Source: a virus
Taxonomy: Duplodnaviria > Heunggongvirae > Uroviricota > Caudoviricetes
IMG/VR virus record: IMGVR_UViG_2713896905_000007
Location: 1-17,799 of that record
DNA: 17,799 bases
Direction: 5' to 3' (one strand)
In this document: positions 316-17,799 of the stretch, piece after piece
How positions within the stretch are numbered: the first letter of the stretch is position 1
Layout: every line of letters starts with the position of its first letter
Notes under the pieces: generated by a model
Databases searched by the model: none
What the model saw: the letters and a program-made list of their open reading frames with translations, nothing else
What the model was told of the DNA's origin: nothing
Made by a program: the position numbers and the translations under genes

Positions 316-778
316 AAGTGACCTCCGATTATCTACAGACTGCTATCCTGAATTTACCTTCCTTTAATGAAATAACAATAAAAAATAAATCACAGAGAAA
401 CAACAAAACAACACACAAAAAAAACTAAATAATAAACCCAAATAATCACCTTATTTTATTATTTTTTGAGAGAGCTATTACTGAACAAAAAACGCTGACT
501 ATATACTCAAAACCAAACAACTATTCTGCCAATCAGGTATCATGGCAACACAAGGAATTACCGTGTTTTTGCCTTCTCTGCCCATACAATACGGACATAT
601 ACTTCATACTCTATTGTAAATTTCCATCCATGCGCCCACTTCATTTATCTGTAAATAATATTCAAAATATTTATCACAGAAATCGTTTTTGGCCATGTTC
701 TGAGCACACTATAAAGTCCGGAACTGACTTTTTGTTAAATTACCTTAACGTTACCAGTAGCACCTTCATAACAAAACA

Positions 779-1716: not shown

Positions 1717-1719
1717 AAA

Positions 1720-2055: not shown

Positions 2056-2131
2056 TTCGTCATCTCTCACCTCGCGATATTTGCGGGTGCTGTGTTGGAA
2101 ATAAAAAGACCACGCAACGTGGCCACCAGAA

Positions 2132-3184: not shown

Positions 3185-3334
3185 AGATCAATAAGCGCTT
3201 CTCTGATAGGCTCATACCGCTTTTGCGCAAAGCAGATGGGCCTGAGGTTTGCTTGTGACCCCAACGCATGAGCAGATGGCTGGCAGGTGCCGCTAACACC
3301 CACCAGCCGCCCATTACCACAAATTAAAAAGCCT

Positions 3335-3514
3335 TCACTGCGGAAAGCGTCTGTAACAACCGAACTGATAATCTGCCAGACCCGCCATAACAAGCTGGGT
3401 CAGTATTAACTGGCAGCGTTCGCGTGAAAGGTAAGTATTCTGCGCAATCTCCCCGACGGTCGCCGGTTCGGTGACGCTTAATTCATTAAACACCACTCTG
3501 GCGGTTTCGGTCAT
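3335..3514 (-). CDS. Hypothetical small protein (59 aa) with winged-helix-like segment, below the ORF-track cutoff
   Basis: My own translation of the minus strand gives MTETARVVFNELSVTEPATVGEIAQNTYLSRERCQLILTQLVMAGLADYQFGCYRRFPQ*, with AGGA just upstream of the ATG. Lies between the tR'-like terminator and the methylase. A continuing out-of-frame ORF (3169-3393) suggests a possible frameshifted longer gene. Confidence 0.35.
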   Translation of the reverse strand: MTETARVVFNELSVTEPATVGEIAQNTYLSRERCQLILTQLVMAGLADYQFGCYRRFPQ

Positions 3515-3654
3515 ATCCTGCTGTTTTAGCAGTCTTTTTTCCTTTTCTGGTTAACGTGACATACCAATAACTCTTGTCGAAAAGGCCAGCAAGCTGAAAG
3601 ACCAGTATTCGCAACCACCAGCGCGTTTAACGTCCTGTGCTGTTTTTCGGACAC

Positions 3655-3677
3655 AAAAAAACCCGCCTGGTGGCGGG
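3655..3677 (-). terminator. Rho-independent terminator on the minus strand, candidate tR' of the late operon
   Basis: Minus-strand reading CCCGCC-ACCA-GGCGGG followed by TTTTTTT (plus coordinates 3662-3677 stem, 3655-3661 U-tract). Positioned about 85 nt downstream of the Q stop and upstream of the late genes. Confidence 0.7.
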
Positions 3678-3726
3678 CTGTAAAAATTCTTCTAACATCA
3701 GGCATAAAACGCCCATCGTTAGTGCG

Positions 3727-3754
3727 AATTTACCACGGATTCGTGAAAAATCAA
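3727..3754 (-). promoter_or_regulatory. Candidate late promoter (pR'-like) immediately after Q
   Basis: Minus strand TTGATT-16 nt-TAAATT, with a TG two bases upstream of the -10 element. Position matches the pR' of lambdoid phages between Q and tR'. Sequence-only prediction. Confidence 0.3.
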
Positions 3755-3759
3755 CAACA

Positions 3760-4581
3760 CTATCGCATTACCCTCTTTAACTGCCGCTCCGCCCATGCCT
3801 CCTCAATGTCAAACCGAACCACCAACGTATCGTAAAAACGCTTCACTGATTTTTTCCACGTATCAAGAGTGATAGCGCTCGTCACTTTGCATATGGCATT
3901 AAACGCCTCCGTTGACGGCAATCTTTCATAGCCACGACCACCACAACGCTGGCAGTCTCTGATAACAGGCATACCACGTTTTACCGACTCTTCACGATGA
4001 ATGGCGACACCACGCCCACGGCAATCCTTACAGGCGGTGGAGACCTCACCCTTTCCCCCGCATTCAGGACAGGCAACTTTTACCACTTCCCGGACTTTTT
4101 TCCATTCTTCCCAGTAAGACGGATACACACCCTTTGTACACTTTGCCCATACCGGCGGTTTACCATCCGGATACTGGACCTTGTTTGTAAAAACTACGCT
4201 TTCAATAAATTTTTTCCCACCGCAACAAGGGCACTGTTTTTTACTCGCTGCACTGCGGGCATAATCCTCAAAAGCGTACGAAGCCATAATGCGCATCACT
4301 GCCGGTTTTATTTCTGCCGGAAGTTTTCTTAACGCCGCCACGCCATCACACCGACTGAGAGCATATTCTGTCAGTAGTTCTGTTGCCCGCTCCCGGTCAT
4401 TCATACTGATGCCCATTTTCCCCAGGAACGCAGAAAATCCCATCTCAGCACGGTCTTGTGTCATACCCTGCGCAGCCATCACATCAGTGATACTCAGCGT
4501 ATCTTTTGACGTCGAGACGGATGCATCAGTCAGACCTGGCGATTTTGGGGAGTAGTATTTCGGTAAATCTTCCAGCTTCAT
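3760..4581 (-). CDS. Late-gene antiterminator Q (lambda Q family), 273 aa, with Cys-rich insertion
   Basis: N-terminal and C-terminal regions match recalled lambda Q (KYYSPKSP...TDVMAA.GM; DTLVV...). Central region carries four CxxCxGxG repeats. Start overlaps the rusA stop. Confidence 0.85.
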   Translation of the reverse strand: MKLEDLPKYYSPKSPGLTDASVSTSKDTLSITDVMAAQGMTQDRAEMGFSAFLGKMGISMNDRERATELLTEYALSRCDGVAALRKLPAEIKPAVMRIMASYAFEDYARSAASKKQCPCCGGKKFIESVVFTNKVQYPDGKPPVWAKCTKGVYPSYWEEWKKVREVVKVACPECGGKGEVSTACKDCRGRGVAIHREESVKRGMPVIRDCQRCGGRGYERLPSTEAFNAICKVTSAITLDTWKKSVKRFYDTLVVRFDIEEAWAERQLKRVMR

Positions 4582-4958
4582 TTATTGACCTGCCCGTCAT
4601 GCATTATTTCGTAAATCTTCACGCCCAGTCGCCCACCAGGAACGAGCTGACCGCGCACAATATTGATTTCATCAAACTGCTCGTCGTCTATAAGTAGTCC
4701 GGCATGCGTCAGCGCATCCAGTGGTGCCTTCAGGATATTGTCCAGGTCGCGGCGGCGCTTATCCGGTGGCTCTGCAATAATCTTTATCGCCAGCCTTCCG
4801 GACAGGTTTAATTTCAGCCGCTGCTGGCGAACAATTAGCGCCACATCACGGCGATAACGCTCACCGGCTTTTGATACAAAATATACGCCACCACGACGGC
4901 GCCAGTAGGTGTTCACCGACGGCGGGTAAGGCAAAACAAATTCTATGCGCTCAGTCAT
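4578..4958 (-). CDS. rusA: Holliday junction resolvase RusA, 126 aa
   Basis: Characteristic RusA motifs (PPSVNTYWRRRGG..., PDKRRRDLDNILKAPLDALTHAGLLIDDEQ) matching recalled E. coli RusA. Lies immediately upstream of Q, as in phage 82 and DLP12. Confidence 0.9.
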   Translation of the reverse strand: MTERIEFVLPYPPSVNTYWRRRGGVYFVSKAGERYRRDVALIVRQQRLKLNLSGRLAIKIIAEPPDKRRRDLDNILKAPLDALTHAGLLIDDEQFDEINIVRGQLVPGGRLGVKIYEIMHDGQVNK

Positions 4959-6014
4959 TTATGCTTTCCACTTCAGGACACCTGAATTTCTCGCGTGCAT
5001 TAAAAAACGAATCAGCAACAACAGCTGGCTGCCGTGTTTTTCTTCAAAATCTTTTACCCCGGCGTGCAGTTCGTTATGACATTTACGGCACAGCGGAATA
5101 ACAAACAAATCGTCAGCCTTTGTTCCCATCCCTCCAAGTCCATGACCAATGATGTGATGCGGATCATCTGCCTGATTGCCACACGTCATGCATTTCTGCG
5201 TTTTTACCCAACGCGTGTATACAGGCATCTCTTCCCGTTGTGGTTTCTGGCGCTGGAGATACTGAGCCGGTGACTCCGGATCAACGGCAATGCTTACCAC
5301 CGTCTTTTCCTGTGGCGGGTTTTGCTGGTGGGCGTGAGGCAGCGGCGCAAGATTTTTTGTGCGCTGCTTCAGTATGCTGGTGGCGGTCTGCTCTCCCGGT
5401 ACGATGTCGCTTTCACGGTACACTGAGCAGATTTTTTCCGCACGCAACCCCAGCGAACGACGTAATACTGACTCAGGTAATGCATCCGCCACCTGATTGC
5501 AGAGCGCCCACCAGGATAATTCAGCCAGCGATAATTCCCGCTCCTGCGTGCCATTCATTGCATGGCGTATGACGTCAATCATCCAGGCTGTCAGGTTTTG
5601 TTGAGCAAGTTGCCCGAGTGATTCGGAGGTCTGGTCACGCAGCTGATTGTCACAGTGCCAGCACAACACCATCGCGCCGGTACCGTAACGATGTATGACG
5701 GTTTCGCTGTGGTGATAGTCACCATGAGGCCACTGGCAGGATTTAACATGACGCAGGAGCCAGTCAGACAATGCGCCAGCGCCGCCAGCAGCACGAATAG
5801 CCCGCTCATCGCTGAAAAATGGCAGTAATGATTTATCTTCCACGAGCGGCTGGCGAACGGCAGGAACAGCTCCTGACGGCAGACTGCGCATGCTTTTCGG
5901 TTCCGGCTCCACCAGCACTCGAGGATTATGAAATACCTGCATGGATTCACGACCAGGCTTAAGGACCACCAGCCCGAGTTCCGGTACCAGAACAGGTCGA
6001 AGTAATACCCGCAC
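4959..6014 (-). CDS. DUF968-like (YdfU-like) phage protein with C-terminal Cys/His HNH-like motif, 351 aa
   Basis: Position between the hok/rem-like genes and rusA-Q matches ydfU of Qin. C-terminal CMTCGNQADDPHHIIGHGLGG...CRKCHNELH resembles a zinc-binding HNH-type fold. Start is GTG at 6014 preceded by GGAGG; an alternative ATG lies at 5942. Confidence 0.6.
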   Translation of the reverse strand: MRVLLRPVLVPELGLVVLKPGRESMQVFHNPRVLVEPEPKSMRSLPSGAVPAVRQPLVEDKSLLPFFSDERAIRAAGGAGALSDWLLRHVKSCQWPHGDYHHSETVIHRYGTGAMVLCWHCDNQLRDQTSESLGQLAQQNLTAWMIDVIRHAMNGTQERELSLAELSWWALCNQVADALPESVLRRSLGLRAEKICSVYRESDIVPGEQTATSILKQRTKNLAPLPHAHQQNPPQEKTVVSIAVDPESPAQYLQRQKPQREEMPVYTRWVKTQKCMTCGNQADDPHHIIGHGLGGMGTKADDLFVIPLCRKCHNELHAGVKDFEEKHGSQLLLLIRFLMHARNSGVLKWKA

Positions 6015-6015
6015 G

Positions 6016-6294
6016 TTACCTCCAAATCCGTTGCTGGAATGTGCGGGACGGACGCGGTGGCCGTTCGAAGTAAGGGAGCCTGACGTAGATTATCCAGTGA
6101 CGATAATCGAGGCTGAGGGCTTTCCTAAACTCATACCCACGTCTGCGGTAGTTCTGAATCAGCCATTCGGCCTGTTCTTCAGTGCATGGGTCGTGCTGGA
6201 ACCAGTCAGATTTGAATGCATGAGAACGCCGCCCGTGCCTGCTGGCAAAGGCGGCTGAATTATCAGAATTGTGTGATCTGGGATTTTGCGCCAT
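6016..6294 (-). CDS. Hypothetical nin-region protein, 92 aa
   Basis: ATG at 6294 with GGAG 7 nt upstream. Its stop directly abuts the downstream gene start, suggesting translational coupling. No recognised motifs. Confidence 0.55.
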   Translation of the reverse strand: MAQNPRSHNSDNSAAFASRHGRRSHAFKSDWFQHDPCTEEQAEWLIQNYRRRGYEFRKALSLDYRHWIIYVRLPYFERPPRPSRTFQQRIWR

Positions 6295-6360
6295 CGGCTT
6301 TCTCCGGTGGCACAGTGTTACTCAACAGGGGTTCAGCCCTGCGCTGAATTGTAGATGAAT

Positions 6361-6621
6361 TCACTCATCTTCAAAAGCAGAAAAACCAGCCTTAATCCCA
6401 GCTTCTTTCAGAGACGGCAACGATGTGACAAATTCATTTGCACGCAAAATAAAACCATCCGTCACAAGCCCATCCACCAAATGAATTAACGCAGCTCCAC
6501 TCTTCCTTTGTTGAGACTGTAAACATTTAATACGGCAGTGGCTGACAATAGCGCCATTCTCAACGCGCACAGTATAGAGGCCATCTTCACTAAAAATTTC
6601 ACGTAATTCTTCGATTTTCAT
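6361..6621 (-). CDS. Hypothetical small protein (86 aa) in the position of rem of Qin
   Basis: ATG at 6621 with GGAAGG upstream. Located immediately downstream of hok as rem is in Qin. Identity with Rem is not verified. Confidence 0.55.
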   Translation of the reverse strand: MKIEELREIFSEDGLYTVRVENGAIVSHCRIKCLQSQQRKSGAALIHLVDGLVTDGFILRANEFVTSLPSLKEAGIKAGFSAFEDE

Positions 6622-6703
6622 CAACAGAATCCTTCCAGATAAATAGCACTCCCCTGTTTGGGGTCCATCCCTCTTCTCCCTGCGCGCTACTTAAGTATTT
6701 TTG

Positions 6704-6733
6704 ATTCTATTCCGGCTCCGTCCAGAACTTCAA
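6704..6733 (-). promoter_or_regulatory. Candidate sigma70 promoter for the rem-like and nin genes
   Basis: Minus strand TTGAAG followed by TAGAAT at 17-18 nt spacing, located just downstream of the hok terminator. Sequence-only prediction. Confidence 0.3.
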
Positions 6734-6743
6734 ACGCGTTGAA

Positions 6744-6771
6744 AATAAAAACAAAAACCCGCCGAAGCGGG
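6744..6771 (-). terminator. Rho-independent terminator ending the hok mRNA
   Basis: Minus strand CCCGC-TTCG-GCGGG followed by TTTTTGTTTTTATTTT. Confidence 0.75.
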
Positions 6772-6841
6772 TTAAGTGCGGGTGCGTTGAGGATGCCTGA
6801 CACATCAGAGGTGGCGAGGGATTTCTCCCCCGCCTGGTCTC

Positions 6842-6997
6842 TTACTCCTCAGGTTCGTAAGCTGTGAAGACAGCGACCTCCGTCTGGCCGGTTCGGATTC
6901 GTACCTCGCAGAGGTCTTTCCTCGTTACCAGTGCCGTCACTATGACGGTTAAACAGATGACGATCAGGGCGATTAACATCGCCTTTTGCTGCTTCAT
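6842..6997 (-). CDS. hokD: Hok-family type I toxin (HokD/RelF-like), 51 aa
   Basis: MKQQKAMLIALIVICLTVIVTALVTRKDLCEVRIRTGQTEVAVFTAYEPEE matches recalled HokD/RelF. Single TM segment and conserved Cys. Confidence 0.9.
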   Translation of the reverse strand: MKQQKAMLIALIVICLTVIVTALVTRKDLCEVRIRTGQTEVAVFTAYEPEE

Positions 6998-7054
6998 AGC
7001 CTGCTTCTCCTTGACCTTTCGGTCCGTAAGAGGCAATCTATATGTGACGAGCAT
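6842..7054 (-). CDS. mok-like overlapping reading frame (70 aa) that includes hok
   Basis: ATG at 7054 with GAGG 8 nt upstream. The frame reads through into hok, as mok does in hok/sok loci. Confidence 0.5.
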   Translation of the reverse strand: MLVTYRLPLTDRKVKEKQAMKQQKAMLIALIVICLTVIVTALVTRKDLCEVRIRTGQTEVAVFTAYEPEE

Positions 7055-7140
7055 ATAGGGGCCTCACTTCGATTTATAGTCGGGTGGGGCTTTTATCTAT
7101 CTGCCGTTGGTGTTCATGCCTGAGGCAGATAGCCTCAAGC

Positions 7141-7168
7141 ACCCGCAGCAATTCTACTTAACTCTCCT
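7141..7168 (-). promoter_or_regulatory. Candidate hok mRNA promoter
   Basis: Minus strand TTGCGG-16 nt-TAGAAT. The predicted transcription start coincides with the 5' element (plus 7122-7135) that is complementary to the 3' element at plus 6778-6792. Confidence 0.4.
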
Positions 7169-7265
7169 TTTCCCGCAAATCGTTTTTATCCCCAGCGGCA
7201 AATCGAATACACCACCAGCGCCACCGCCATTGCAATTCCCATCGTTGCGAATGCTTCAGGCCAGG

Positions 7266-7985
7266 TCATTGACTCACCTCCAGCGGCGGTTCTGGTAGCG
7301 GCATCCAGTGAGTTGCTTGCCCAAGGTCATTACCCGGACTAACTGCTATACCTCCGCGTCGGAACGTGTCTCCGATATAGCGTGCGGAATATATTAATGG
7401 CCCAGCCTCGCTGTCGATATTCACCGAAATAAGCACGTTCTGGCTCTTTTCAGGCATTCGCTCACTGCAGCTTATCCAACTATCCGGAGTTCCCGGAGAG
7501 TTGCCCGACAGCTCGTTCAACTTGTAAGTCTGGCTTACAGGTTCGTCACCATTAAGCATGGCGTTGCTCCGCTCTATACCATCCAGCGCGATTCGCAGTG
7601 CCTGAATTGTGGTAGTGCTATCGTTTGGGGCTATTCCATATCGCTCGAATACAGCGATATGACCGCGCATAATCTCAGGTGTAAGTTCTTTGTAAGCATA
7701 AGCAAGAGACGCTGATGCATTATCCGGCACAACCGACGCAGGCGCGGCAGCATAAACAGGAATAACGTCCGCTTGCTCTTTATTGCTTTCATCCGTTAAA
7801 GCCCAGAATAATTTCCCGGCCGGATGTTTGAAAATATAAGCAATTGGTTCTGCTTCCAGAGATGCCAGAGCAATTTTGAATAACTCACCCTCTACTCGTG
7901 CCACCCCTGAATTGGGGTGGCATTTCGCAATCGCTATTTTTAATTTAGCTTCTTCGATTAATTGCTCTTTTGTTAATTCAGTCAT
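7266..7985 (-). CDS. Phage protein with C-terminal DUF551-like domain, 239 aa
   Basis: The C-terminal segment (WISCSERMPEKSQNVLISV...THWMPLPEPP) resembles the DUF551 domain common in nin regions of enterobacterial prophages. ATG at 7985. Confidence 0.6.
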   Translation of the reverse strand: MTELTKEQLIEEAKLKIAIAKCHPNSGVARVEGELFKIALASLEAEPIAYIFKHPAGKLFWALTDESNKEQADVIPVYAAAPASVVPDNASASLAYAYKELTPEIMRGHIAVFERYGIAPNDSTTTIQALRIALDGIERSNAMLNGDEPVSQTYKLNELSGNSPGTPDSWISCSERMPEKSQNVLISVNIDSEAGPLIYSARYIGDTFRRGGIAVSPGNDLGQATHWMPLPEPPLEVSQ

Positions 7986-8143
7986 TTTTCATTACCGCCC
8001 TTTCGGGCGGCCTCCTGATGTTTTGAGGGTGCAGGAATCCCTCCTGTTAAGGATTAAATTTTATTTACAGTGCTGAGATTAATTATTCAGATTTGGATTA
8101 TGTTTTCTCTTTCACTTCACGCAGTCCTGATTGTTAATTTGGC

Positions 8144-8560
8144 TCACAGTATCACCTCCTGCAAACTTCCCTTCCAGAAAGCCAGCACCCGTTGCATAGC
8201 TTCGCTCTGGCGGCACTCGAGACAAATTATGTTCTGTCGTCTGTTGTAACGACGTATTTCGCCATCTGGCAATGAATAAATCAGGTCAGGGTCGCTCTTC
8301 TTTTTCACTGCCGCTCTCGACATTTTTTTGCAGGCTTTTATCCAGTCCTTACGAGCCTGCTCCGAAGGAAATATTCCATGTCCTGAACCATATACTGCGC
8401 CACTAACTACCAGCTCTTTCGCCAGAACTTCTATCAGGTGCCTCGTTGCTCCGGTTTCATCCTCCAGTTGCTTACGTGTTTTCCGCCCATCCCGCTGTAC
8501 CAGCTCCACAATGCGCGCCTTCAGTTGCTTCCTGTATTCAGGTGTAAAAACGTTTCCCAT
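8144..8560 (-). CDS. Hypothetical protein, 138 aa from ATG at 8560
   Basis: The ORF extends to 8617, but ATG at 8560 has GAGG 5 nt upstream and sits just past the stop of the upstream gene. No recognised motif. Confidence 0.5.
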   Translation of the reverse strand: MGNVFTPEYRKQLKARIVELVQRDGRKTRKQLEDETGATRHLIEVLAKELVVSGAVYGSGHGIFPSEQARKDWIKACKKMSRAAVKKKSDPDLIYSLPDGEIRRYNRRQNIICLECRQSEAMQRVLAFWKGSLQEVIL

Positions 8561-8567
8561 AAACGCC

Positions 8568-9329
8568 TCACTTTTCCGACACAACGCGACTGGAGGAATC
8601 GACAATCTGTCGGACAATATCCCTGTGTTTATTCAGCTCCCGCAGTGCGGCACAGACTCGCTCCCACTTCTGGACACGGTTTTTTGCCCGGCGCAGTTCG
8701 CGGTTTGCCAGATGCAGCGATGGTAAAGTCAGGTCATCGGCTCGCGTTTTGGTGAACGATGGCAACGACTGCACAATGTCCGCCACAGTTTCTGTTTTAA
8801 TTTCTTCCTGTATTGCAGCTTCCGGCGCTGGTAACGCAACACCCGCTGGCTGAGGAAAGGCTTTACCACCATTTCCCGTTACCGATGCGGCTTTCGGTTC
8901 TGCTGGTAAATCATCGCCCGGCAGGCAGTAACGGAATTTACCGTTCTGATTTACACGAATCAGGCGACCTTTGCTGATTGCCTGAGCCAGCGTTGAAGCT
9001 ACTTTGCGTGATGTGGTACCGAACAACGTAGCCAGTTCATCCGCCGTTTGTGGTCCGCGTTGTTCAATCGTCGCGGTTAAATCGCACTCTGAGATTTTCG
9101 CTACTGTTGCTGTGGTGGTTTCTTCCGGCAGCTCTGCCTGCGCTGGCTGTTCCTGCTGAACGTTGTTATCAGCCACACGCCAGGTGTACGCGCTCTTATC
9201 AACAAAACCAGCCTTTTTCAGTTCCCATAGTTCGTTAAGCACTTCTTCACGACTGATATCAAGTCGCGCCGCAAGTTCTATGGATGTGGCTTTTCCCATT
9301 GCTTTCAGTGCGTCAAAAACAGTCTCCAT
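8568..9329 (-). CDS. Hypothetical protein with two predicted winged-helix DNA-binding segments, 253 aa from ATG at 9329
   Basis: ATG at 9329 preceded by AGGAG with 9-nt spacing; an alternative ATG at 9380 lacks a ribosome-binding site. Two HTH-like segments ([28 protein letters not shown] and [29 protein letters not shown]) and a basic helical C-terminus. Confidence 0.55.
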
Positions 9330-9351
9330 TAAATTTTTCTCCTGGTAAAAA

Positions 9352-10098
9352 TTACTTCGTGATTCCTGGCTGGACGACATTCTGGCGCCAGCTTTCCCAG
9401 TTAAAAGTCACCCAGCGCCCGCCGTTCATGGTCATGCGATCCATAATCCTCTCGCCGAGCAACGTTTTCATGGCCTCATAGTTCAGGTTTGTCAGCATCC
9501 CCATACTGCGCATCGATGCTGTCCGGCGATCAACAATCTGATGCAGCACCACCTGCTCGTTTTTCGTCTCACGCTGAATGCCAATTTCATCAAGAACCAG
9601 CAGATCCACTTCGCACAGTTCCCGCAAAAATTTTTCGCCTGACTGCCCGTCGTCATAGCTGGCGTGCAGGGCACTCATAACATCAGCCACAGTAACCACT
9701 ATCACTGTCTGGCCGTCTTTCAGCAGGCGATTTCCGATAGCCGCCGCCAGATGGTTTTTTCCGGTACCAGGTTTTCCGCTGAACGCGAAATTTGTGCATC
9801 CGGTCATCAGTTCATCAGCGATGGATTTCGCCTGACTTAACGCGTATCGCTGGCCGTCGTTCTGTACATGGTAATTCGCAAACGAGCATTTACGGTGCAA
9901 CGGCTGGATGCCTGAGCGATTCAGAATTTTTTCCACCCGCAACTGGCGATTCAGGCGGTTGATCTCCTCGCTACGCTTCTGGCCTTCAGCAAGTTGCCAC
10001 TCGCGCCACTCCGCTACCGTTCTGAATGGGGCGGTTACATGTGGCGGGGTCAGTCTGCGGATACGTTCCAGAACGCCGCCTGTCGCAATATTTTTCAT
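9352..10098 (-). CDS. DnaC/IstB-like helicase loader (replication protein P analogue), 248 aa
   Basis: Walker A motif [15 protein letters not shown] and Walker B motif LLVLDEIG. Starts 6 nt after the O-like gene. Confidence 0.85.
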
Positions 10099-10104
10099 GG
10101 TTCG

Positions 10105-11094
10105 TTACCCCCTGAACCCCGGCGGAATTTCGGTGTCCGGTTCAGAAATATGATTCACACAACGCTGTACAGGTGAACGCCCCAGGCGGATGACCAGTTC
10201 GTCCCATTTTTCGCGGAGCTTTGACGGGCTCATGATGTTTTTTACCCAGAATGGATCCCGCTGTACCCGCCCAAACATTTCGCAAATTTGTCTGTGAGTT
10301 CTGCCATCCAGCATCCGCATTGTGCGCACGTCATTGGCCCACGCGGTCCAGTTGGGTTCTTTCGGTCTCGTGATCTCGCCATCATCGCTGGCCGCCTGCT
10401 CGTAAAGACTCACGATTCGTCCCCAGATCCACTGTGCGCACGCCAAATCTTCCTGACTTCCCCACTGGCGTTTTTTCGCACTGAACACAACCGCATCAGG
10501 GTGTCGGGTTAAAAAATCCTGTTCAGCCGTCTGCGGGTCCGGTTGCGAAGCTTCCGGACGAGAAGTGTTTTTATTCTCTGTAGTAATCTCTGTTGTATTC
10601 TCTGTTGTATTCTCTGTTGTATTCTCTGTAAGATCATCAGGCCATTTTGACCCGATGACATTGGGTCGTTTTGAACCAATGGAGCGTGCCATTTTGACCT
10701 CTTCCATCGTGTCATTTTGACCTGATGGAGCGGCGCATTTTGACCTGATGGATTCGCTCACTTTGCCACCATCTAAAAGCTCACTCTCGTAATTAATCGT
10801 GTAAAAATTAGTCATATCACGCTTTGATTTGTTGAGCTTTTCGCAACGCAAAAGCCCCAGCGTTTTCAGACTTGCAAATGCACGTTTTAACGTTGATTCA
10901 GACCAGAACGGAAACTGTTCCAGCCATTGTTCCGTTGTGTTATAAATCCAGCGAACCCCGTCACATTCCACACCGGAATTGGTATCTCTCAACCAGTAAT
11001 GCAGCTGCTGTAACACAATGGCTTCGTTCAGACCTATTTCCATCGCCAGCTGAGTGTTAATAACCAGTGGGCGTTCAGCAAAAAGAAGACTCAT
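10105..11094 (-). CDS. Replication initiator (lambda O-like) with origin iterons embedded in its coding sequence
   Basis: Precedes the DnaC-like gene. Tandem repeats inside the ORF encode ENTTENTTENTTEITTEN, the arrangement seen at the lambda origin inside O. Start is uncertain: TTG at 11148 or ATG at 11136, 11094 or 11043; I chose 11094. Confidence 0.65.
   Translation of the reverse strand: MSLLFAERPLVINTQLAMEIGLNEAIVLQQLHYWLRDTNSGVECDGVRWIYNTTEQWLEQFPFWSESTLKRAFASLKTLGLLRCEKLNKSKRDMTNFYTINYESELLDGGKVSESIRSKCAAPSGQNDTMEEVKMARSIGSKRPNVIGSKWPDDLTENTTENTTENTTEITTENKNTSRPEASQPDPQTAEQDFLTRHPDAVVFSAKKRQWGSQEDLACAQWIWGRIVSLYEQAASDDGEITRPKEPNWTAWANDVRTMRMLDGRTHRQICEMFGRVQRDPFWVKNIMSPSKLREKWDELVIRLGRSPVQRCVNHISEPDTEIPPGFRG
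10573..10632. repeat. Five tandem 12-bp direct repeats (ATTCTCTGTTGT family)
   Basis: Read directly: attctctgtagt, aatctctgttgt, attctctgttgt, attctctgttgt, attctctgtaag. Confidence 0.9.
10643..10815. repeat. Second iteron family (CATTTTGACC, about 23-bp unit) plus adjacent AT-rich segment; putative replication origin
   Basis: CATTTTGACC at 10643, 10689 (as CCATTTTGACC), 10713 and 10736, with degenerate copies near 10666 and 10758. Several copies are followed by a GATG motif. AT-rich stretch at about 10785-10815. Confidence 0.65.
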
Positions 11095-11596
11095 AATTCC
11101 ATCCGGCTTTTTGTTGATATTGCTGACGATACGCATGCTTGAAAGCAATAGCTTTTTCTATAAGCTCGTCAGTCTCACGCTCCACAACAGCGGGATCTGC
11201 CAAAAGCAGACCGGACTCCACCACATCGCCATATTCTTTGTTTAACCCGGCGATCATGTATGTAATGCTTTTTCCGTCAGTAATTTCACGATACAACCTG
11301 AAATCACTTATCCGGATAGCCTCCATAATTGCCGGAATCAGCGCCGTGAATTTTTCCCGCTTATCCCTGGTATCAATAGCTTTCCAGCGTTCGAATATCT
11401 TCACCCGGTTGACGCCCAGCGCCCGTTGATCAACCGCGCCATCATCAAACGTGACGCGTTGAACATCGATGTTCGGGCGTTCTTTCAGAGCCCAGAATGC
11501 TTCCGTGATTAATATCGTCGCCTGCTCCTGTGTCATTCCTGGTCGGCATACCCAGGCATCCAGAGCCTCACAAACCTGTTCAGGGGTGATTTTCAT
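11075..11596 (-). CDS. Early protein in the cII position (possible CII-like or YdaT-like regulator), 173 aa
   Basis: ATG at 11596 overlapping the dicC-like stop. Lies between the cro-like and O-like genes. Functional call is by position only. Confidence 0.5.
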   Translation of the reverse strand: MKITPEQVCEALDAWVCRPGMTQEQATILITEAFWALKERPNIDVQRVTFDDGAVDQRALGVNRVKIFERWKAIDTRDKREKFTALIPAIMEAIRISDFRLYREITDGKSITYMIAGLNKEYGDVVESGLLLADPAVVERETDELIEKAIAFKHAYRQQYQQKAGWNYESSFC

Positions 11597-11807
11597 TGTT
11601 CAACCGCCCCGCCCGCTTTGCCTTACGATATTCGTCATAAACTTTGGGGTCGTACTGAAGTTCCCCGCCGGATGCCTCTTGCAGGCGCATCGCGCGACCT
11701 TCAGGAACAAGTTCCCCCCATGCAGCAACACTTGCCAGTTTCACTCCTGCGGCATTGGCAAGTTTTGTTTTGCTGCCAAAAAAAGTAATTGCGTCAACTT
11801 TAAGCAT
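11580..11807 (-). CDS. dicC: Cro-like HTH regulator (DicC-like), 75 aa
   Basis: Resembles recalled DicC (LK.DA..FGSKTKLA.AAG..LAS...W...VPEGRAMRLQEASGGELQYDPKVYDEYRK.KRAGRLNNENH). ATG at 11807 preceded by GAGGGGG. Divergent from the repressor gene. Confidence 0.8.
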   Translation of the reverse strand: MLKVDAITFFGSKTKLANAAGVKLASVAAWGELVPEGRAMRLQEASGGELQYDPKVYDEYRKAKRAGRLNNENHP

Positions 11808-11820
11808 CAAAACCCCCTCT

Positions 11821-11838
11821 TGTTAGATATTCCTAACA
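11821..11838. promoter_or_regulatory. Operator palindrome TGTTAG-N6-CTAACA between dicC-like and dicA-like genes
   Basis: tgttagatattcctaaca read directly. Overlaps the divergent promoter region (minus-strand TTGACT at about 11850-11855). Confidence 0.6.
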
Positions 11839-11887
11839 GTAATGTGCACGGGATACCTAAGTCAAGAAAAATTAGAATTACCTAACT

Positions 11888-12295
11888 ATGGATACAAGAA
11901 CCCTAGGCCAGCGAGTTCTGGCACGACGAAAAGAATTACGCCTAACACAACGAGAAGCTGCACGCCTCGCTGGGGTAGCTCACGTCACAATTTCACAATG
12001 GGAAAGAGACGAAACCCAACCGGTCGGGAAGCGGTTATTTGCTTTAGCTGATGCGCTGAAGTGCTCGCCTACATGGCTAATGTTTGGTGACGAAGACAAG
12101 GCACCAGTGCCAGCACAAGAACTTCATGTGGAAACCGAGTTAACTCCCAGCCACAAAGAATTGATCGAATTATTCGATGCTCTTCCCTCCTCCGAGCAGG
12201 AAGCCTTACTGTCTGAAATGCGCGCAAGAGTAGAGAATTTCAATAAACTCTTCGAAGAAATGCTTAAAGCACGTAAAAACAAATCAATAAAATAA
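11888..12295 (+). CDS. dicA: Prophage repressor, DicA-like (HTH XRE family), 135 aa
   Basis: Same length as DicA and strong similarity to recalled DicA (HTH ...TQREAARLAGVAHVTISQWERDETQPVGKRLFALADALKCSPTWLMFGDEDK..., C-terminal ...EMRARVENFNKLFEEMLKAR). Divergent from the cro-like gene. Confidence 0.85.
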   Translation: MDTRTLGQRVLARRKELRLTQREAARLAGVAHVTISQWERDETQPVGKRLFALADALKCSPTWLMFGDEDKAPVPAQELHVETELTPSHKELIELFDALPSSEQEALLSEMRARVENFNKLFEEMLKARKNKSIK

Positions 12296-12331
12296 CTCTC
12301 CTTTCAGATACTTAGATTCCCTCACTCTTTT

Positions 12332-12385
12332 TGTTAGATCAATCTAACAAAAAACACTTGCCACATTTGTTAGGTTATTCTAAAT
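12332..12385. promoter_or_regulatory. Operator pair and pL-like promoter downstream of the repressor gene
   Basis: Palindrome ttgttagat-ca-atctaacaa at 12331-12350 and a half-matching site tgttaggttattctaa at 12368-12383. Plus-strand TTGCCA (12358-12363)-17 nt-TAAATT (12381-12386) overlaps the second site. Confidence 0.5.
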
Positions 12386-12463
12386 TAATCTCCATCAAGA
12401 CACCGCACGGTGTTCTCAGCAAACAGTTCCGCTACCCCGGCGTTAAGGGGAAATGAGGTCAGC

Positions 12464-12619
12464 ATGGATACTATCGATCTTGGCAACAACGAATCTCTGG
12501 TGTACGGCGTGTTTCCCAACCAGGACGGCACATTCACCGCGATGACGTATACCAAAAGCAAAACGTTTAAAACCGAAAATGGTGCCCGTCGCTGGCTGGA
12601 AAGAAACTCAGGTGAGTGA
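12464..12619 (+). CDS. ydfA: YdfA-like small protein, 51 aa
   Basis: ATG at 12464 with GAGG 6 nt upstream. Length and position after dicA match ydfA of Qin. Identity is by position and length only. Confidence 0.6.
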   Translation: MDTIDLGNNESLVYGVFPNQDGTFTAMTYTKSKTFKTENGARRWLERNSGE

Positions 12620-12620
12620 T

Positions 12621-12749
12621 ATGGATTTCGACACAATCATGAAAAAGGCTTACGAAGAATACTTCGAAGGCCTTGCCGAAGGCGAAGAAACTCTCAGCTT
12701 CAGCGAATTTAAACAGGCGCTTTCCAGTTCGGCAAAATCTAACGGCTGA
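12621..12749 (+). CDS. ydfB: YdfB-like small protein, 42 aa (below ORF-track cutoff)
   Basis: My own translation: MDFDTIMKKAYEEYFEGLAEGEETLSFSEFKQALSSSAKSNG*. ATG lies 1 nt after the upstream stop, with GGTGAG upstream. Length and position match ydfB. Confidence 0.55.
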   Translation: MDFDTIMKKAYEEYFEGLAEGEETLSFSEFKQALSSSAKSNG

Positions 12750-12778
12750 TAAGCGAAACAACACCGCGAGGAATCAGT

Positions 12779-12997
12779 ATGCAGAAACGAGAACCCGTCA
12801 TCATCGCGCCAGACTATACCGATGATGAACTTTATGAGTGGATGCACCAGAAAATTAAGGCAGCGCAGAACCTGAAATGGGCCAATGAAGCCAGGGCTAA
12901 GCAGGCTGAAAATCTGTCCGCTCTGGAGCAGGATATCACCAGGCTGGAAAAAGCAGCGGCATTAAGCATTGCCAGAATGATTACATACCCGCGTTAA
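12779..12997 (+). CDS. ydfC: YdfC-like small protein, 72 aa
   Basis: ATG at 12779 with GAGGA upstream. Length and position match ydfC. Coiled-coil-like sequence. Confidence 0.6.
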   Translation: MQKREPVIIAPDYTDDELYEWMHQKIKAAQNLKWANEARAKQAENLSALEQDITRLEKAAALSIARMITYPR

Positions 12998-13338
12998 TAG
13001 CTAACCAACGAAGCTAAGGTTGGTAATTAAGGAGTTCTCCACGGGTGAGGTGGAGTGCGTGCGCCGGACACGGGTGAGCATCCGGCACTGACAGTTTACT
13101 GAAAGGATATTTCCCTGAAAAGTCAGGGCATAACGCGAAAGCGCACGGCGAGGTTTCTAGTTCACAGATAGCCTGTCGTTAAATTTTCGTCGACCGTGCG
13201 CTTCCGGTTGTGGCAATCCGCGAAATGGCGCGGCGGTAAGTATGGCGGGGTTATTCCTTCCCCCGTTGAGGACACCGGGTTGTCAGGTTGACCATACGCT
13301 TAAGTGACAACCACGCTGCAACGCCCTCTGTTATCAAT

Positions 13339-13396
13339 TTTCTGGTGACGTTTGGCGGTATCAGTTTTACTACGTGACTGCTCTGCCGCCATTTTT
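13339..13396 (+). ncRNA. dicF: DicF small regulatory RNA with terminator-like 3' hairpin and U-tract
   Basis: tttctggtgacgtttggcggtatcagttttactacgtgactgctctgccgcc followed by attttt is near-identical to my recollection of E. coli DicF (about 53 nt). Lies downstream of the ydfABC-like genes as in Qin. Confidence 0.8.
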
Positions 13397-13570
13397 AAAG
13401 TGAATTTTGTGATGCGGTGAATGCGGCTGAGCGCACGCGGAACAGTTAAAACTAAAAACAGTGTTATGGGTGGATTCTCTGTATCCGGCGTTAATTGTTA
13501 ACTGGTTAACGTCACCTGGAGGCACCGGGCACCGCATCAACAAAGTTCATTTGTAAAAATGGAGATAATT

Positions 13571-13792
13571 ATGATTGCTCATCACTTCGGAACTGATGAG
13601 ATTCCTCGTCAGTGCGTGACTCCCGGTGATTATGTTATTCATAAAGGAAGAACATATATTGCTTCGGTAAACAACATTAAAAAACAACGGCTCTATATTC
13701 GTGATTTTTCCACACAACACTGTATTAAGGAAACCATGATTAAAGTCTTCCTTGGTCGTGATGGTTTACCTGTAAAAGCAGAGTCATGGTGA
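13571..13792 (+). CDS. Hypothetical 73-aa protein in the dicB slot downstream of DicF
   Basis: ATG at 13571 with GGAG at 6-nt spacing; an upstream in-frame ATG at 13559 lacks a ribosome-binding site. Not recognisably DicB by my recollection. Confidence 0.55.
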
Positions 13793-13915
13793 GCAGTAAT
13801 AAAATAACTGCCACAATACGACATTCAGCTTAATGAATACATCAGATTTGATTCTTATATGTCAGCAATGGCAGGGATTTGTTCACCCTTAAATCTGTAA
13901 TGAGGTTAAAACAAA

Positions 13916-16381
13916 ATGAGTAAAGTCTTTATTTGCGCCGCCATTCCGGACGAACAGGCAACAGCAGAAGGCGCTAAACCTGTGGCCACTGCCATTGAAG
14001 CAGGCGACGAACGCCGGGCAAGAGCCAAATTTAGCTGGTTATTTCTGGAACAATACCCGGAAGCTCAGGACTGTGCTTATAAATTTCTTGTCTGCGAGGA
14101 TAAACCCGGCATGGCCCGCCCTGCTCTCGATTCCTGGGATTCCGAATATATGCAGGAAAACCGCTGGAATGAGGAGTCGGATTCCTTTGTTCCGGTCGCC
14201 CCTGAACCGGATACAGAAACTGTTAACTTTAATCAGTTATCTGAAGACAAGCGGGCTGCTGTCCTTGTCAGGTTCGGTACACATGAAAACATCACCGTGG
14301 ATATGGTCATCAATGCAAGCGGGCTTCTCGGCGATGACGAGATGACGACTTTTGATGGACACCTCACTGAAGCAATTATCAGGACTAAAGAAATTAACGC
14401 CATGTATCCTGAGCGTCAGACTGAGTACATCAACGACGCCAGACGTGATTTAAAACCAACAGCCAAATGGCCCGACGTTCAGGCGTATTTTCTCGAACGT
14501 AAAAAACGCATGGAAAAGGAGCGCAAAGAAGGTGGAGCATATAATTCCGTCGTCGATCTTGCCCGCGCCAGAGTCAACCGGCAAGGCACTGAAAACTCTG
14601 CAGGAAAAACTGGCTCCGTAACTGCTGTCATTCGTCGCGAATACAGGCAGACATGGAAAACACTGGATGACGAACTGGCCTACGCTCTCTGGCCTGGTGA
14701 TGTGGATGCCGGAAACATTGACGGCAGCATCCATCGCTGGGCAAAAAATGAAGTTATCGACAACGACCGCGAAGACTGGAAGCGTATCTCGGCATCAATG
14801 CGCAAACAGCCTGATGCCCTTCGCTACGACCGCCAGACTATTTTTGGCCTTGTCCGTGAACGTCCGATCGACATTCACAAAGACTCTGTGGCACTGAACA
14901 AATACATTACTGAATACCTGACGACAAAAGGCGTGTTTGAAGATGAAGAAACGGATCAGAGTCCTGCTGATGTTCTCCGGTCGTCAGCAACACAAACTGA
15001 TGCAGTGGAAACAGAAGTATCTGGCACCCAAAAAAATGAAAGCGCACTGGAAGCTGAACCATCTGTAGAGCGTGAAGGACCGTTCTACTTCCTCTTTACC
15101 GATAAGGACGGCGAAAAATACGGTCGCGCAAACAAACTGTCTGGTCTGAATAAGGCGCTGGCTGCCGGGGCTACTGAAATCACCAAAGAAGAATACGTCG
15201 CCCGAAAAAATGGCACATACACAGGCTTACCGCAAAATACCAATGCCGCACAAAACTCTGAACAACCAGAGCCGGTAAAAGTTAACACGGTCGAAACAAA
15301 TAAAAAAATGGAGACAGAAAATCTGCCTGATGCCGACAAAGTGCTTGCTGCATCACGCGGTGAATTTATTGAAGGAATTAGCGACCCGAATGATCCGAAG
15401 TGGGTTGAGGGGATCCAGACTCGCGATTCTGTGTACCAGAATCAGCAAGAAACGGAACAGAACGACCAGAAAGCGGAACAAAACAGTCCGGATGCGCAAC
15501 AAAATGGACCAGAAGTGCAACAGTATGAGCCAACAGCACAACAGGAGACTGAAAAAAGCTGCAATACTTGCGGCCGGACTGGCGGTGGAAAATGTCCTGA
15601 CTACGGGCCTGTTATGGGTAACACAACATATCAGGAAACATTCGATGAAGAAAATCTGGCTGAAAAAGATTCGGAGAAAATGGAAAGCACTGAGCATTCT
15701 CGTGAAGAGAGCGCTGGTGACGCTCAGCATGGCAATAGCAGTGATGAAACTGGCGAGACGGCAAATCCCTTAATTGTGATGAACGGTCATCATAAAATCA
15801 CATCCACCAGCGGAACGTGTGAACATCTGATGATCGACCTTGAAACAATGGGAACTAATACCAGTGCGCCCATCGTGGCTATTGGTGCAGTATTCTTCAA
15901 CCCACAGACAGGAGAAATCGGGCCGGTATTTTATATCGTTATCAGTCTGGTTGATGCAATGAACACAGGCGCGGTTCCTGATGGCGGCACTATCGAATGG
16001 TGGCTGGCGCAGTCCAGCGAGGCCAGATCTGCAATTTTAACAGACCAGACAAAACTGAAAGATGGACTGTTGTTGTTTCGGGAGTTCATCAACGAACACT
16101 CAGATGAAAAATTCGTTCAGGTATGGGGAAATGGCGTAGCTTTCGATAACGCAATTTTACGCACTTCATACGAACGTCTGAACATCCCCTGTCCGTGGCA
16201 ATACTGCAACGATCGCGATGTACGCACAATCGTTGAGCTGGGGAAAGCCATAGACTTCGATGCCAGAACGGCTATTCCATTCGAAGGTGAGCGCCATAAT
16301 GCACTTGATGACGCCCGTTACCAGGCAAAATACGTTTCAGTTATCTGGCAAAAACTGATCCCGAGTCAGGCTGATTTTTAA
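13916..16381 (+). CDS. Large prophage protein (821 aa): N-terminal region of unknown function, acidic Q/E-rich linker with Cys motif, C-terminal DEDDh-type 3'-5' exonuclease domain
   Basis: ATG at 13916 with GAGG upstream. C-terminal motifs MIDLETMG (Exo I), [12 protein letters not shown] (Exo II) and [10 protein letters not shown] (Exo III, H-x4-D) define a DnaQ-like DEDDh exonuclease. Occupies the exo/recE position between the early-left genes and xis-int. Confidence 0.8.
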
Positions 16382-16442
16382 TGTTCAACCGTCGCCAGTT
16401 GTCGTTGATATTCTGCAACTGGCGCGTTCCGGAGTGATAGCC

Positions 16443-16712
16443 ATGAGCGAACAGTACCTGATAACGCTCGACGAGTGGAAACCAAAACGGTTCAGTCTCC
16501 CAATAACAAACACTACCCTGGTGAAATACGGAAAACTAGGATACATCGTTCCAAGACCACAAAAAATTCGTGGGCGTTGGCTGATAGATCGCCGAGCAGT
16601 ATTTGTTGGGCCTGGTGAAACGGGAATTGCGCCGGAAATTCATACTGGCGATGATGATGCACTGAAGGAGGTTTTAACTCATGTCACCGAGGCCACGAAA
16701 AAACAGCACTGA
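16443..16712 (+). CDS. xis: Excisionase-like protein, 89 aa
   Basis: Small gene immediately upstream of and overlapping int. ATG at 16443 with GGAG at 8-nt spacing. Confidence 0.6.
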   Translation: MSEQYLITLDEWKPKRFSLPITNTTLVKYGKLGYIVPRPQKIRGRWLIDRRAVFVGPGETGIAPEIHTGDDDALKEVLTHVTEATKKQH

Positions 16713-17799
16713 CGTAGCCGGTCTTTACGAAAAGTTTGATCGCAGAACTGGCAGAGTTTACTACCAGTATAAAAATCCTGTGACTGGAAAATTTCACGGA
16801 CTCGGAACAGACAAAGGTAAGGCAGAAAAAATCGCTTCCACAGCCAATCAGCGAATAGCTTCAGCAGAAGCTGAATATTTCATGCGCAAAATTGATGAAA
16901 GTCCGTCAGCAACAAAACGTCGGGGTATCAGATTAAAGGCATGGGTTGATCGATATCTGAAAATACAGGACACGCGACTGAAAAATGGAGATATTGCAGC
17001 TACAACTCACAAAGAAAAAACTCGAATGGCTGCATACCTGGTTTCCCGTCTGGGAAACCACCCATTGAAAGAACTGGAAGTAAGAGACTTTGCATTAATA
17101 CTGGATGAGTGGCTGGATAAAGACATGGTCAGCACAGCGAGAGTAAATCGTGGATTATGGGTTGATATTTATAAAGAAGCACAGCATGCAGGAGAAGTTC
17201 CTCCTGGATGGAATCCTCCGGAGGCTACCCGTAAACCGATCCCTAAAGTAACCAGAGCCAGACTCACCCTGGAAGACTGGCAAAAAATTTACAACGCAAC
17301 GCCTGAAAAACACTTTATCCGTAACGCAATGCTTCTTGCGATTGTTACTGGTCAGCGCCGTGATGACATTTGCCACATGCGTTTTTCAGATGTGTGGAAC
17401 GAACACTTGCATATCACCCAGGGAAAAACCGGAATGCGTCTGGCGTTACCGCTTACACTACGCTGTGATGCCATTGGGATAACGTTAAAAGAAGTTATTG
17501 ATGGGTGCCGAGACAGAATATTAAGTCCATACCTAATCCATAGTCGGCACCAGAAACAACCGAAGCCGATGAGTAAAGACAACCTGAGCGACTACTTTGC
17601 CAAAGCACGGGATCTGGCTGGAATAATTCCACCAGCAGGAAAAACTCCGCCAACATTTCATGAACAACGCTCTCTATCAGAACGGCTGTACCGTGCACAG
17701 GGTATCGATACAAAAACATTACTAGGGCATAAAGTCCAGGCAACCACCGATCGCTATAACGATACTCGAGGTCAGGAATGGGTTAAGTTGGTTATTTGA
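16681..17799 (+). CDS. int: Tyrosine integrase (lambda Int family), 372 aa, complete, stop at window end
   Basis: Clear similarity to recalled lambda Int (AIVTGQRRDDICHMRFSD; GKTGMRLALP; PPTFHEQRSLSERLY; LLGHK...RYNDTRGQEW). GGAGG upstream of the ATG. Confidence 0.95.
   Translation: MSPRPRKNSTDVAGLYEKFDRRTGRVYYQYKNPVTGKFHGLGTDKGKAEKIASTANQRIASAEAEYFMRKIDESPSATKRRGIRLKAWVDRYLKIQDTRLKNGDIAATTHKEKTRMAAYLVSRLGNHPLKELEVRDFALILDEWLDKDMVSTARVNRGLWVDIYKEAQHAGEVPPGWNPPEATRKPIPKVTRARLTLEDWQKIYNATPEKHFIRNAMLLAIVTGQRRDDICHMRFSDVWNEHLHITQGKTGMRLALPLTLRCDAIGITLKEVIDGCRDRILSPYLIHSRHQKQPKPMSKDNLSDYFAKARDLAGIIPPAGKTPPTFHEQRSLSERLYRAQGIDTKTLLGHKVQATTDRYNDTRGQEWVKLVI

Follow-up and report, generated by a model that had tools for sequence, protein, structure and literature searches.

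The stretch of DNA analysed here (the window) comprises positions 1 to 17,799 of the IMG/VR virus record IMGVR_UViG_2713896905_000007 (Caudoviricetes), 17,799 nucleotides in all, and spans a lambdoid prophage from its lysis genes to int. The gene of interest encodes an 821-residue protein and stands last among the large genes of the leftward early operon, 61 bp from the excisionase gene (Table 1). It occupies the slot held by recE in the Rac prophage: the order kil, open reading frame (ORF), xis, int parallels the kilR...recE-recT...xis-int arrangement of Rac, and the same gene order is seen in prophages of Escherichia coli and in viable phages, namely Evi, Tritos, mEp460_ev081 and vB_EcoS-640R1. 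An earlier reading of this DNA, made without database searches (the sequence-only reading), had described a single 821-residue ORF in the recE slot, ending in a DEDDh 3'-5' exonuclease domain and lacking an annealase partner, and on all of these points it was borne out. It had also taken the gene to be the only one between DicF and xis-int; this is not the case, as a gene of the Kil/KilR family lies there too. On its sequence, the protein is a paralogue of RecE in which a predicted DexA-like DEDDh 3'-5' domain stands in place of the PD-(D/E)XK nuclease while the RecE/YdfE scaffold is kept.

The C-terminal domain was identified by profile, sequence and fold. Pfam family PF16473 (Rv2179c-like 3'-5' exoribonuclease) matches residues 636-811 over the whole of its profile (positions 1-177 of 177; E 5.7e-67; 225.3 bits against a cutoff of 27), with RNase_T as a weaker sibling match. 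All motifs quoted in the sequence-only reading were located: the DxE motif MIDLETMG at residues 639-646 (D641, E643), the Exo II motif at residues 737-748 (D744) and an Exo III motif of the form H-x4-D at residues 794-803 (H794, D799). These five residues align onto D7, E9, D119, H186 and D191 of DexA of phage T4 and are kept in 114-116 of 116 full-length relatives. DexA (8KEL/8KEN) is the sole match among PDB sequences using phmmer (E 2.5e-8). When the AlphaFold2 model of residues 634-816, with a predicted local distance difference test score (pLDDT) of about 65-91, was compared with the PDB using Foldseek, DexA again came first (8kel, E 1.9e-10), followed by REXO2, RNase T and Orn, each of the four with a probability of 1.00; all of the best 50 matches listed are DnaQ/DEDD-type exonucleases. 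Profile and fold searches thus both place the domain in the DnaQ-like fold and not in the PD-(D/E)XK fold of RecE. As sequence, profile and fold agree, the DEDDh assignment is sound, and DEDDh exonuclease as the enzymatic class is near certain, with the activity itself a prediction.

The remainder of the protein is related to two known prophage proteins, as the sequence-only reading had suspected. BLASTP showed residues 1-257 to be 67% identical to the YdfE fragment of the Qin prophage of E. coli K-12, and residues 262-621 to match residues 278-592 of Rac RecE (E 6e-51). Segment by segment, the similarity to RecE is modest at residues 262-336 (24% identity to RecE 278-351, E 7.5e-5), undetectable at residues 346-451 and strong at residues 460-621 (56% identity to RecE 442-592, E 2e-58), where it reaches 81% in the linker core at residues 468-510 and 69% in the region of a Cys motif. 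Positions 445-603 of the NCBIfam exonuclease VIII model correspond to residues 452-621 of the window protein. The homology stops near the start of the RecE nuclease domain, which has been placed at residues 564-606 in a review describing the RecE N-terminal region as being of unknown function, yet boosting linear-linear recombination (PMC11611040).

With a shallow alignment, AlphaFold2 gave low confidence over most of the N-terminus, linker included. A diverse alignment of 50%-cluster representatives raised the mean pLDDT of residues 1-450 to 83.6; the helical domain at residues 100-206 rose from 70-86 to above 90, the middle module at residues 245-340 was modelled at about 90-95 and the small domain at residues 388-432 at 92-95. 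This last domain also has a column conservation of 0.97-0.99 among the 116 relatives. Residues 340-625 are acidic and Q/N-rich (58 D+E vs 25 K+R) and are predicted to be largely unstructured. The ratio of non-synonymous to synonymous substitution rates (dN/dS) was calculated pairwise against three homologues, namely an E. coli prophage copy and those of phages Evi and vB_EcoS-640R1. It lies at 0.10-0.48 in nearly all segments, with 0.28-0.41 for residues 100-206 and 0.18-0.28 for the low-complexity linker at residues 460-621, and the gene is therefore under purifying selection over its entire length. It is also a recombinational mosaic, since dS leaps from 0.03 to above 1.5 between neighbouring segments.

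The sequence-only reading had further noted a Cys motif, which lies in the linker. The letters it quoted are present (residues 549-561, plus strand), but the motif as found in relatives is longer and consists of four cysteines, CxxC-x7-CxxC, the last of which is a tyrosine (Y563) here. C549, C552 and C560 are kept in 115-116 of the 116 relatives; position 563 is Cys in 115 of 116, and Tyr (TAC, window positions 15602-15604) in the window copy only. The counterpart of this zinc-knuckle-like motif in RecE is CNACGQTGGDNCPDCG. C563Y could be a private mutation that inactivates or destabilises the protein, but a sequencing error could also account for it.

Table 1. Features of the exonuclease gene and its neighbourhood (positions are those of the window; aa, amino acid residues of the 821-residue protein)
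Feature	Position	Strand	Basis
DicA/cI-like helix-turn-helix (HTH) repressor, head of leftward operon	11888..12295	+	Pfam HTH_3; PHROG transcriptional repressor families
Small ydfA/B/C-like ORFs	between repressor and DicF	+	
DicF small RNA, upstream in same leftward early operon	13340..13391	+	Rfam RF00039, 70.2 bits vs gathering 48
kil (KilR-family septation inhibitor), directly upstream of exonuclease gene	13571..13792	+	phrog_294 E 2.6e-34; Pfam KilR on BBVV01000004.1
YdfE/RecE-like DEDDh exonuclease gene (821 aa)	13916..16381 (stop codon included)	+	ORF listing, ATG start
Alpha/beta domain, part of YdfE-type N module (aa 1-95)	13916..14200	+	
Helical domain, YdfE-type N module (aa 100-206)	14213..14533	+	AlphaFold2, dN/dS
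Helical middle module common to RecE 278-351 (aa 245-340)	14648..14935	+	AlphaFold2, RecE identity
Small beta-hairpin + helix domain, GPFYF...GRANK...EEYxARKNG (aa 388-432)	15077..15211	+	AlphaFold2, conservation
Acidic Q/E-rich linker common to RecE 442-592 (aa 460-621; core motif aa 468-510)	15293..15778	+	
Zinc-knuckle-like motif CxxC-x7-Cxx(C/Y) (aa 549-566)	15560..15613	+	Alignment of 116 relatives
Predicted DnaQ-fold DEDDh 3'-5' exonuclease domain (aa 634-816)	15815..16363	+	Pfam, phmmer, Foldseek
Excisionase (xis), directly downstream	16443..16712	+	phrog_629 E 3e-25; gene call on BBVV01000004.1
Tyrosine integrase (int)	16681..17799	+	Pfam Arm-DNA-bind_1 + Phage_integrase

The attachment site adjoins potC, which follows int on the NCBI contig BBVV01000004.1. 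A partner for the exonuclease was sought among 32 ORFs of the window, and as the window runs from the lysis genes to int, the whole early region was covered. Within the limits of the families held in Pfam and PHROGs, the Pfam scan found no member of the RecT, Bet, Erf or Rad52 families, the PHROG scans found no annealase among the unassigned early genes, and no Gam-type gene was detected. The tblastn search of the window with Rac RecT and the RecE nuclease domain was likewise negative (no E better than 0.59 overall, or than 0.78 for RecE 601-866). Neither a single-strand annealing protein nor Gam is annotated in the complete genomes of Tritos and mEp460_ev081. The only further recombination-related functions seen in the window are a RusA Holliday-junction resolvase in the nin region (4578-4958, minus strand) and an adjoining DUF968/HNHc_6 protein (4959-6014, minus strand).

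The possibility that the gene is an independently expressed moron was considered and set aside: consensus promoter and terminator sites occur at or below the shuffled level and none lies in the 123-bp gap upstream, a weak negative. The absence of any such excess, together with the Rac context, suggests that the gene is co-transcribed from the early-left promoter and expressed on induction, as is Rac recE.

Several other genes of the window were recorded. The Q antiterminator and the holin flank a gene for an N6/N4 DNA methyltransferase (2132-3184, minus strand; Pfam N6_N4_Mtase, E 1.4e-42), whose homologue in one related prophage of E. coli (L003) has a frameshift. A hok/sok locus (6842-7144, minus strand) comprises a Hok/Gef ORF (6842-7054) and the sok antisense RNA (6995-7144; Rfam, 105 bits). 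An ORF for a Ren-like exclusion protein/DUF977 (8144-8617, minus strand) overlaps a DUF1627 ORF (8568-9380, minus strand) by 50 bases; the true starts of both are probably later than those of the longest ORFs, the calls on BBVV01000004.1 being 8144-8560 and 8568-9329. At the window edge beyond the lysis cassette, a PerC-family transcriptional activator (1-315, minus strand; Pfam E 5.4e-44) represents a moron of the virulence-regulator type. A 138-residue ORF (11469-11885, plus strand) has no family match, overlaps ydaT-like and cro-like genes on the opposite strand and is probably not a gene.

The exonuclease belongs to a common and already annotated family (NCBI, Pfam, PHROGs), and the rarity implied by the sequence-only reading was not upheld. 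Using megablast at a coverage of at least 80%, the gene was found in 2281 of 5426 complete E. coli genomes (best identity about 88%, which shows that the window does not derive from them) and in 15 phage records; at the DNA level it is 79-81% identical to its full-length counterparts in viable phages. The exact protein is present on BBVV01000004.1 (GCA_001514905.1), with precomputed Pfam annotations YdfE_N, YdfE_C and Rv2179c-like; PF27430 (YdfE_N) and PF27432 (YdfE_C) both occur on it and on all close relatives, which places it in the YdfE family. The nearest other proteins, from Logan assemblies at 96% identity and in many cases from E. albertii at 91%, are labelled 'exonuclease', '3'-5' exonuclease' or '3'-5' exoribonuclease domain-containing protein', and many records mislabel the family 'exonuclease VIII'. 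The protein family phrog_2082 matches end to end (residues 1-821 against 1-823 of 823). Literature searches did not return a functional study of ydfE, or of Rv2179c in connection with phage.

The composition of the wider family was mapped with residues 1-450, for which a HMMER search of 1.84 billion cluster representatives returned only 182 clusters at E ≤1e-3; segments of the window protein and of RecE were then mapped onto the long matches. The N-module of these relatives is either of the YdfE type or of the type of RecE residues 1-277, nearly all of them have the helical middle module, whichever C-terminal domain they carry, and the C-terminus is formed by a DEDDh domain, by the PD-(D/E)XK nuclease of RecE or by neither of the two. 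All four combinations of N-module and nuclease were found: besides those of the window protein and of RecE, a RecE-type N-module is joined to a DEDDh domain in P0380, P0451 and P0468, and in phage vB_EcoS-640R1 in the same genomic slot, and a YdfE-type N-module to the RecE nuclease in P0371 and P0427. This module map, in which one YdfE/RecE scaffold is joined to a DEDDh domain, to the RecE nuclease or to a third domain, is the new result here.

The third domain (C3), of about 260 residues, was found in about 20 clusters (P0372, P0375, P0396 and P0454 among them), and the small domain at residues 388-432 is also present in two of these C3-type relatives (P0372, P0375). C3 has no Pfam family and matches phrog_2489 and phrog_7838, both labelled 'exonuclease'. 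It forms the C-terminal part of gp07 of Pectobacterium phage ZF40 (L015, 2708-4873), directly downstream of which lie a Mu-Gam-like gene, xis and int, and it also occurs in Vibrio and Pseudomonas phage records; the viral_contigs scan yielded no C3-type loci. The C3 proteins are probably the 'RecE-2' proteins, which PMC12315714 describes as having no nuclease domain. A role of C3 as a Rad52-like annealase, to which its motif KKSLTDAxKKALSxLGFSADV had pointed, remains conjectural: Rad52_Rad22 gave only a sub-threshold match (E 0.095), in one of four sequences, and phmmer against the PDB returned nothing.

The DEDDh domain also exists on its own, in proteins of 183-190 residues that are 58-89% identical to the C-terminal domain of the window protein. 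At least one of them, P0094, is the last gene before xis-int in other prophages, in the same slot. Standalone Rv2179c-like exonucleases of 189 residues, probably of the type published as the 'bacterial' defence protein EcD, were seen as prophage genes directly upstream of xis-int in L010-L012 (6001-6570), downstream of DndB-like, DUF2303 and YfdP genes.

The window is rich in Chi sites (GCTGGTGG). In the 17.8 kb of prophage visible there are 12, whereas dinucleotide shuffles predict 0.63 and not one of 200 reached this number. Nine lie on the minus strand of the window (the top strand in lambda's conventional orientation), seven of them at 1999-7219, in the nin/Q/lysis region; the sites at 15804 and 17629 are inside the exonuclease and integrase genes, respectively. 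Tritos and mEp460_ev081 show a similar bias, with top/bottom counts of 9/2 and 7/2. According to PMC12315714 (Genome Res 2025), lambdoid phages without an anti-RecBCD function gather Chi sites on the top strand towards the right end and are proposed to make concatemers through RecBCD. Table 1 of the same paper lists a 'Tritos' type of four phages, all Chi-rich, that have a nuclease and lack a single-strand annealing protein (SAP), a single-stranded DNA-binding protein (SSB) and an anti-RecBCD function. The window corresponds to this type, having an early-left nuclease, no SAP, SSB or anti-RecBCD gene among the families searched, and top-strand Chi sites that, at nine, exceed the minimum of four and cluster towards the right arm. 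Since Tritos itself carries an 823-residue homologue of the window protein (TRITO_27), a nuclease without an annealase partner is a module type already in the literature; the chimeric architecture of a RecE scaffold with a DEDDh domain is absent from the main text of that paper.

We propose with moderate confidence that the protein is an exonuclease made on induction that would take nucleotides off DNA 3' ends during phage DNA replication and recombination, with the scaffold serving in targeting; its biological role is a best guess. Like RecE, it would be produced on induction or infection and not in a stable lysogen. Its C-terminal domain would act on free 3' ends and shorten them; DNA is a more likely substrate than RNA, as DexA, the nearest characterised relative, is a DNA exonuclease. 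The N-terminal scaffold would deliver or tether the nuclease to whatever the RecE N-terminus targets, either a host factor or the end of a DNA molecule. The phage would depend on host RecBCD, Chi and RecA for concatemers, and this enzyme would be the only Rec-module function of its own. RecBCD requires nearly blunt ends, and 3'-5' single-stranded DNA exonucleases modulate recombination pathways. These two properties give rise to the idea that the enzyme trims 3' tails and so readies ends as RecBCD substrates, or else suppresses their Chi-independent use in recombination, an idea we regard as distinctly doubtful. The same caution applies to a broader scheme, a long shot at present, in which the scaffold would be no dispensable appendage but an autonomous, conserved delivery platform of four confidently modelled domains that carries interchangeable C-terminal domains: a RecE 5'-3' nuclease, a DEDDh 3'-5' nuclease or the third domain of the ZF40 gp07 type, perhaps Rad52-like. 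In a Chi-rich phage with neither annealase nor Gam, the DEDDh version would be the single recombination function and would shape ends for RecBCD, Chi and RecA, for instance by making 3'-tailed ends blunt so that RecBCD can enter, or by degrading the 3' tails of Chi-poor DNA from competitors.

Several points weigh against the proposed role in DNA recombination. Full-length members of the family are known from sequence and model alone, and the Pfam family of the domain is named for the RNA exonuclease Rv2179c. DEDDh enzymes often cut RNA and DNA alike. No characterised structural relatives of the N-terminal domains were found, and the tether role is accordingly drawn by analogy only. The private C563Y lies in an otherwise invariant Cys motif, and the window copy may be impaired. 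According to PMC12315714, 3'-5' DnaQ-type nucleases mostly inhibit homologous recombination and DnaQ-type genes beside int are probably not members of the Rec module. Close standalone homologues have also been reported as anti-T4 defence proteins (PMC12153337).

This last report raises the possibility of a nuclease for inter-phage exclusion or defence, in which the DEDDh domain would break down the nucleic acid that superinfecting phages bring in, be it modified DNA, as reported for EcD/HREX, or the 3' ends of RNA phages, as reported for TONDO, and the N-terminus would be an auxiliary or sensor. EcD, a DexA homologue of E. coli, is reported to degrade T4 DNA containing 5-hydroxymethylcytosine (5hmC) and to protect against T4 (PMC12153337), and prophage DEDDh 'TONDO' exonucleases with auxiliary domains defend against MS2 and Q-beta (2026 preprint PMC13344964). 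The standalone homologues in the same slot directly before xis-int are consistent with such a role, and the numbering of P0094 would fit EcD A78 if its start is MIDLETMG. With PADLOC, the only match was a weak one, to a DEDDh model of the Cas-associated kind (E 4.7e-4); the search found no defence system past this generic model and nothing for the neighbouring genes, and membership of a known defence system was rejected on this basis. Two residues point the other way. W152 of DexA, reported to be needed for recognition of 5hmC, corresponds to C764 of the window protein and is C, H or Y, never W, in the 116 full-length relatives, while the equivalent of DexA D90, which forms the tetramer and whose loss defines the EcD type, is kept as D716 and is D in 114 of the 116. 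Furthermore, the gene sits in an early-left operon that appears to be under repressor control and lacks its own promoter-like site, and it is kept in viable phages as the only gene of the Rec slot. Rac recE is silent in lysogens, which also counts against exclusion. We consider a defence function unlikely.

We judge it improbable that the protein is instead an RNA 3'-5' exoribonuclease, trimming or degrading phage or host transcripts such as the products of the dicF-kil operon in early lytic growth. The best Pfam family takes its name from an RNase of Mycobacterium tuberculosis, the structural neighbours that rank behind DexA, namely REXO2, RNase T and Orn, act on RNA or oligonucleotides, and the gene appears to be co-transcribed with the small RNA DicF. 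However, the closest characterised relative in both sequence and structure is a DNA exonuclease, the scaffold is common to the DNA exonuclease RecE and is joined to the RecE nuclease domain in relatives, and no link of the N-terminal domains to RNA was found.

Decay of the window copy in a resident prophage, leaving it impaired or with no current function, would account for a tyrosine at a position of the Cys motif kept in nearly all relatives, yet it is quite improbable in view of an ORF intact over 821 codons with all catalytic residues, a dN/dS well under 1 against relatives, and the intact Q, lysis, replication, int and xis ORFs nearby. There is next to no chance of an ordinary RecE (exonuclease VIII) orthologue whose annealase partner went unnoticed. 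Homologues do carry the label 'exodeoxyribonuclease VIII' in several phage records and the NCBIfam model matches in part, but NF007259 scores 243.4 bits against a cutoff of 1269 with only the linker (residues 452-621) matching, neither PF12684 nor PF06630 is present, a PD-(D/E)XK nuclease is absent by Pfam, tblastn and fold search, the next gene is xis, and no RecT, Bet, Erf or Rad52-type gene was found in the window or in the complete genomes of Tritos and mEp460_ev081 as annotated.

The full-length gene is carried by about 40% of complete E. coli genomes and by several viable lambdoid phages, some next to Shiga-toxin phages, and it is the only recombination-slot function in a Chi-rich lambdoid class proposed to depend on RecBCD. 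As the N-terminal region is under purifying selection while the catalytic domain is swapped for one of opposite polarity, the role of this region in RecE is not tied to 5'-3' resection or to the loading of RecT. The module map offers a modest new handle on the long-unexplained N-terminus of RecE. If the scaffold does act as a delivery platform, this would give the RecE N-terminus a role, and temperate phages a new way to use RecBCD rather than to inhibit it. If exclusion should be correct after all, the 'bacterial' HREX proteins would be prophage early genes.

Among the closest known systems is Rac RecE (b1350, 866 residues). It shares the leftward early slot between kil and xis-int, a C-terminal nuclease, the homologous linker with its zinc knuckle and the helical middle module. 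It differs in its first 277 residues, which form another N-module, in its PD-(D/E)XK 5'-3' nuclease (PF12684), for which the window protein has a predicted DEDDh 3'-5' domain, and in being followed by recT, whereas the window gene is followed by xis. Qin YdfE (b1577, a pseudogene), Tritos TRITO_27, its Evi counterpart and phrog_2082 belong to the same family as the window protein, in an identical neighbourhood for the Qin and Tritos type (dicF, dicB/kil, ydfD in some, the gene, xis, int). The Tritos-type module as tabulated in PMC12315714 has, like the window, a nuclease only and many top-strand Chi sites. In Qin, ydfE is cut by IS2 after about 256 residues, leaving E. coli K-12 without this nuclease; the window copy is full length but bears C563Y.

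For the nuclease domain, T4 DexA is the closest solved structure by sequence and fold, a phage 3'-5' DNA exonuclease whose five catalytic residues all have aligned counterparts in the window protein. The two are only about 30% identical, however, and DexA is a standalone protein of 227 residues with extra loops, has a tryptophan (W152) at the position of C764, and comes from a virulent phage with modified DNA. Opposite the acidic D169 of DexA, the alignment has gaps and shows an F with an Asp on either side (D-F-D). DexA forms dimers or tetramers, and RecE tetramers. EcD/'HREX' (PMC12153337) and the standalone Rv2179c-like proteins have a DEDDh domain 58-89% identical to that of the window protein but no YdfE/RecE scaffold. 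From residue numbering only, EcD (HAK9828821.1) appears to belong to the standalone group of P0094; in the group that best fits the EcD numbering, the Trp is kept and the Asp of DexA D90 is missing, while the two sites are occupied by Cys and Asp in the window protein. Rv2179c of M. tuberculosis, ExoI, ExoX, RNase T and Orn have the DEDDh site in common with the window protein and belong to its Pfam family or superfamily, but these are cellular housekeeping enzymes with no phage scaffold, and their identity in structural alignments is 13-20%.

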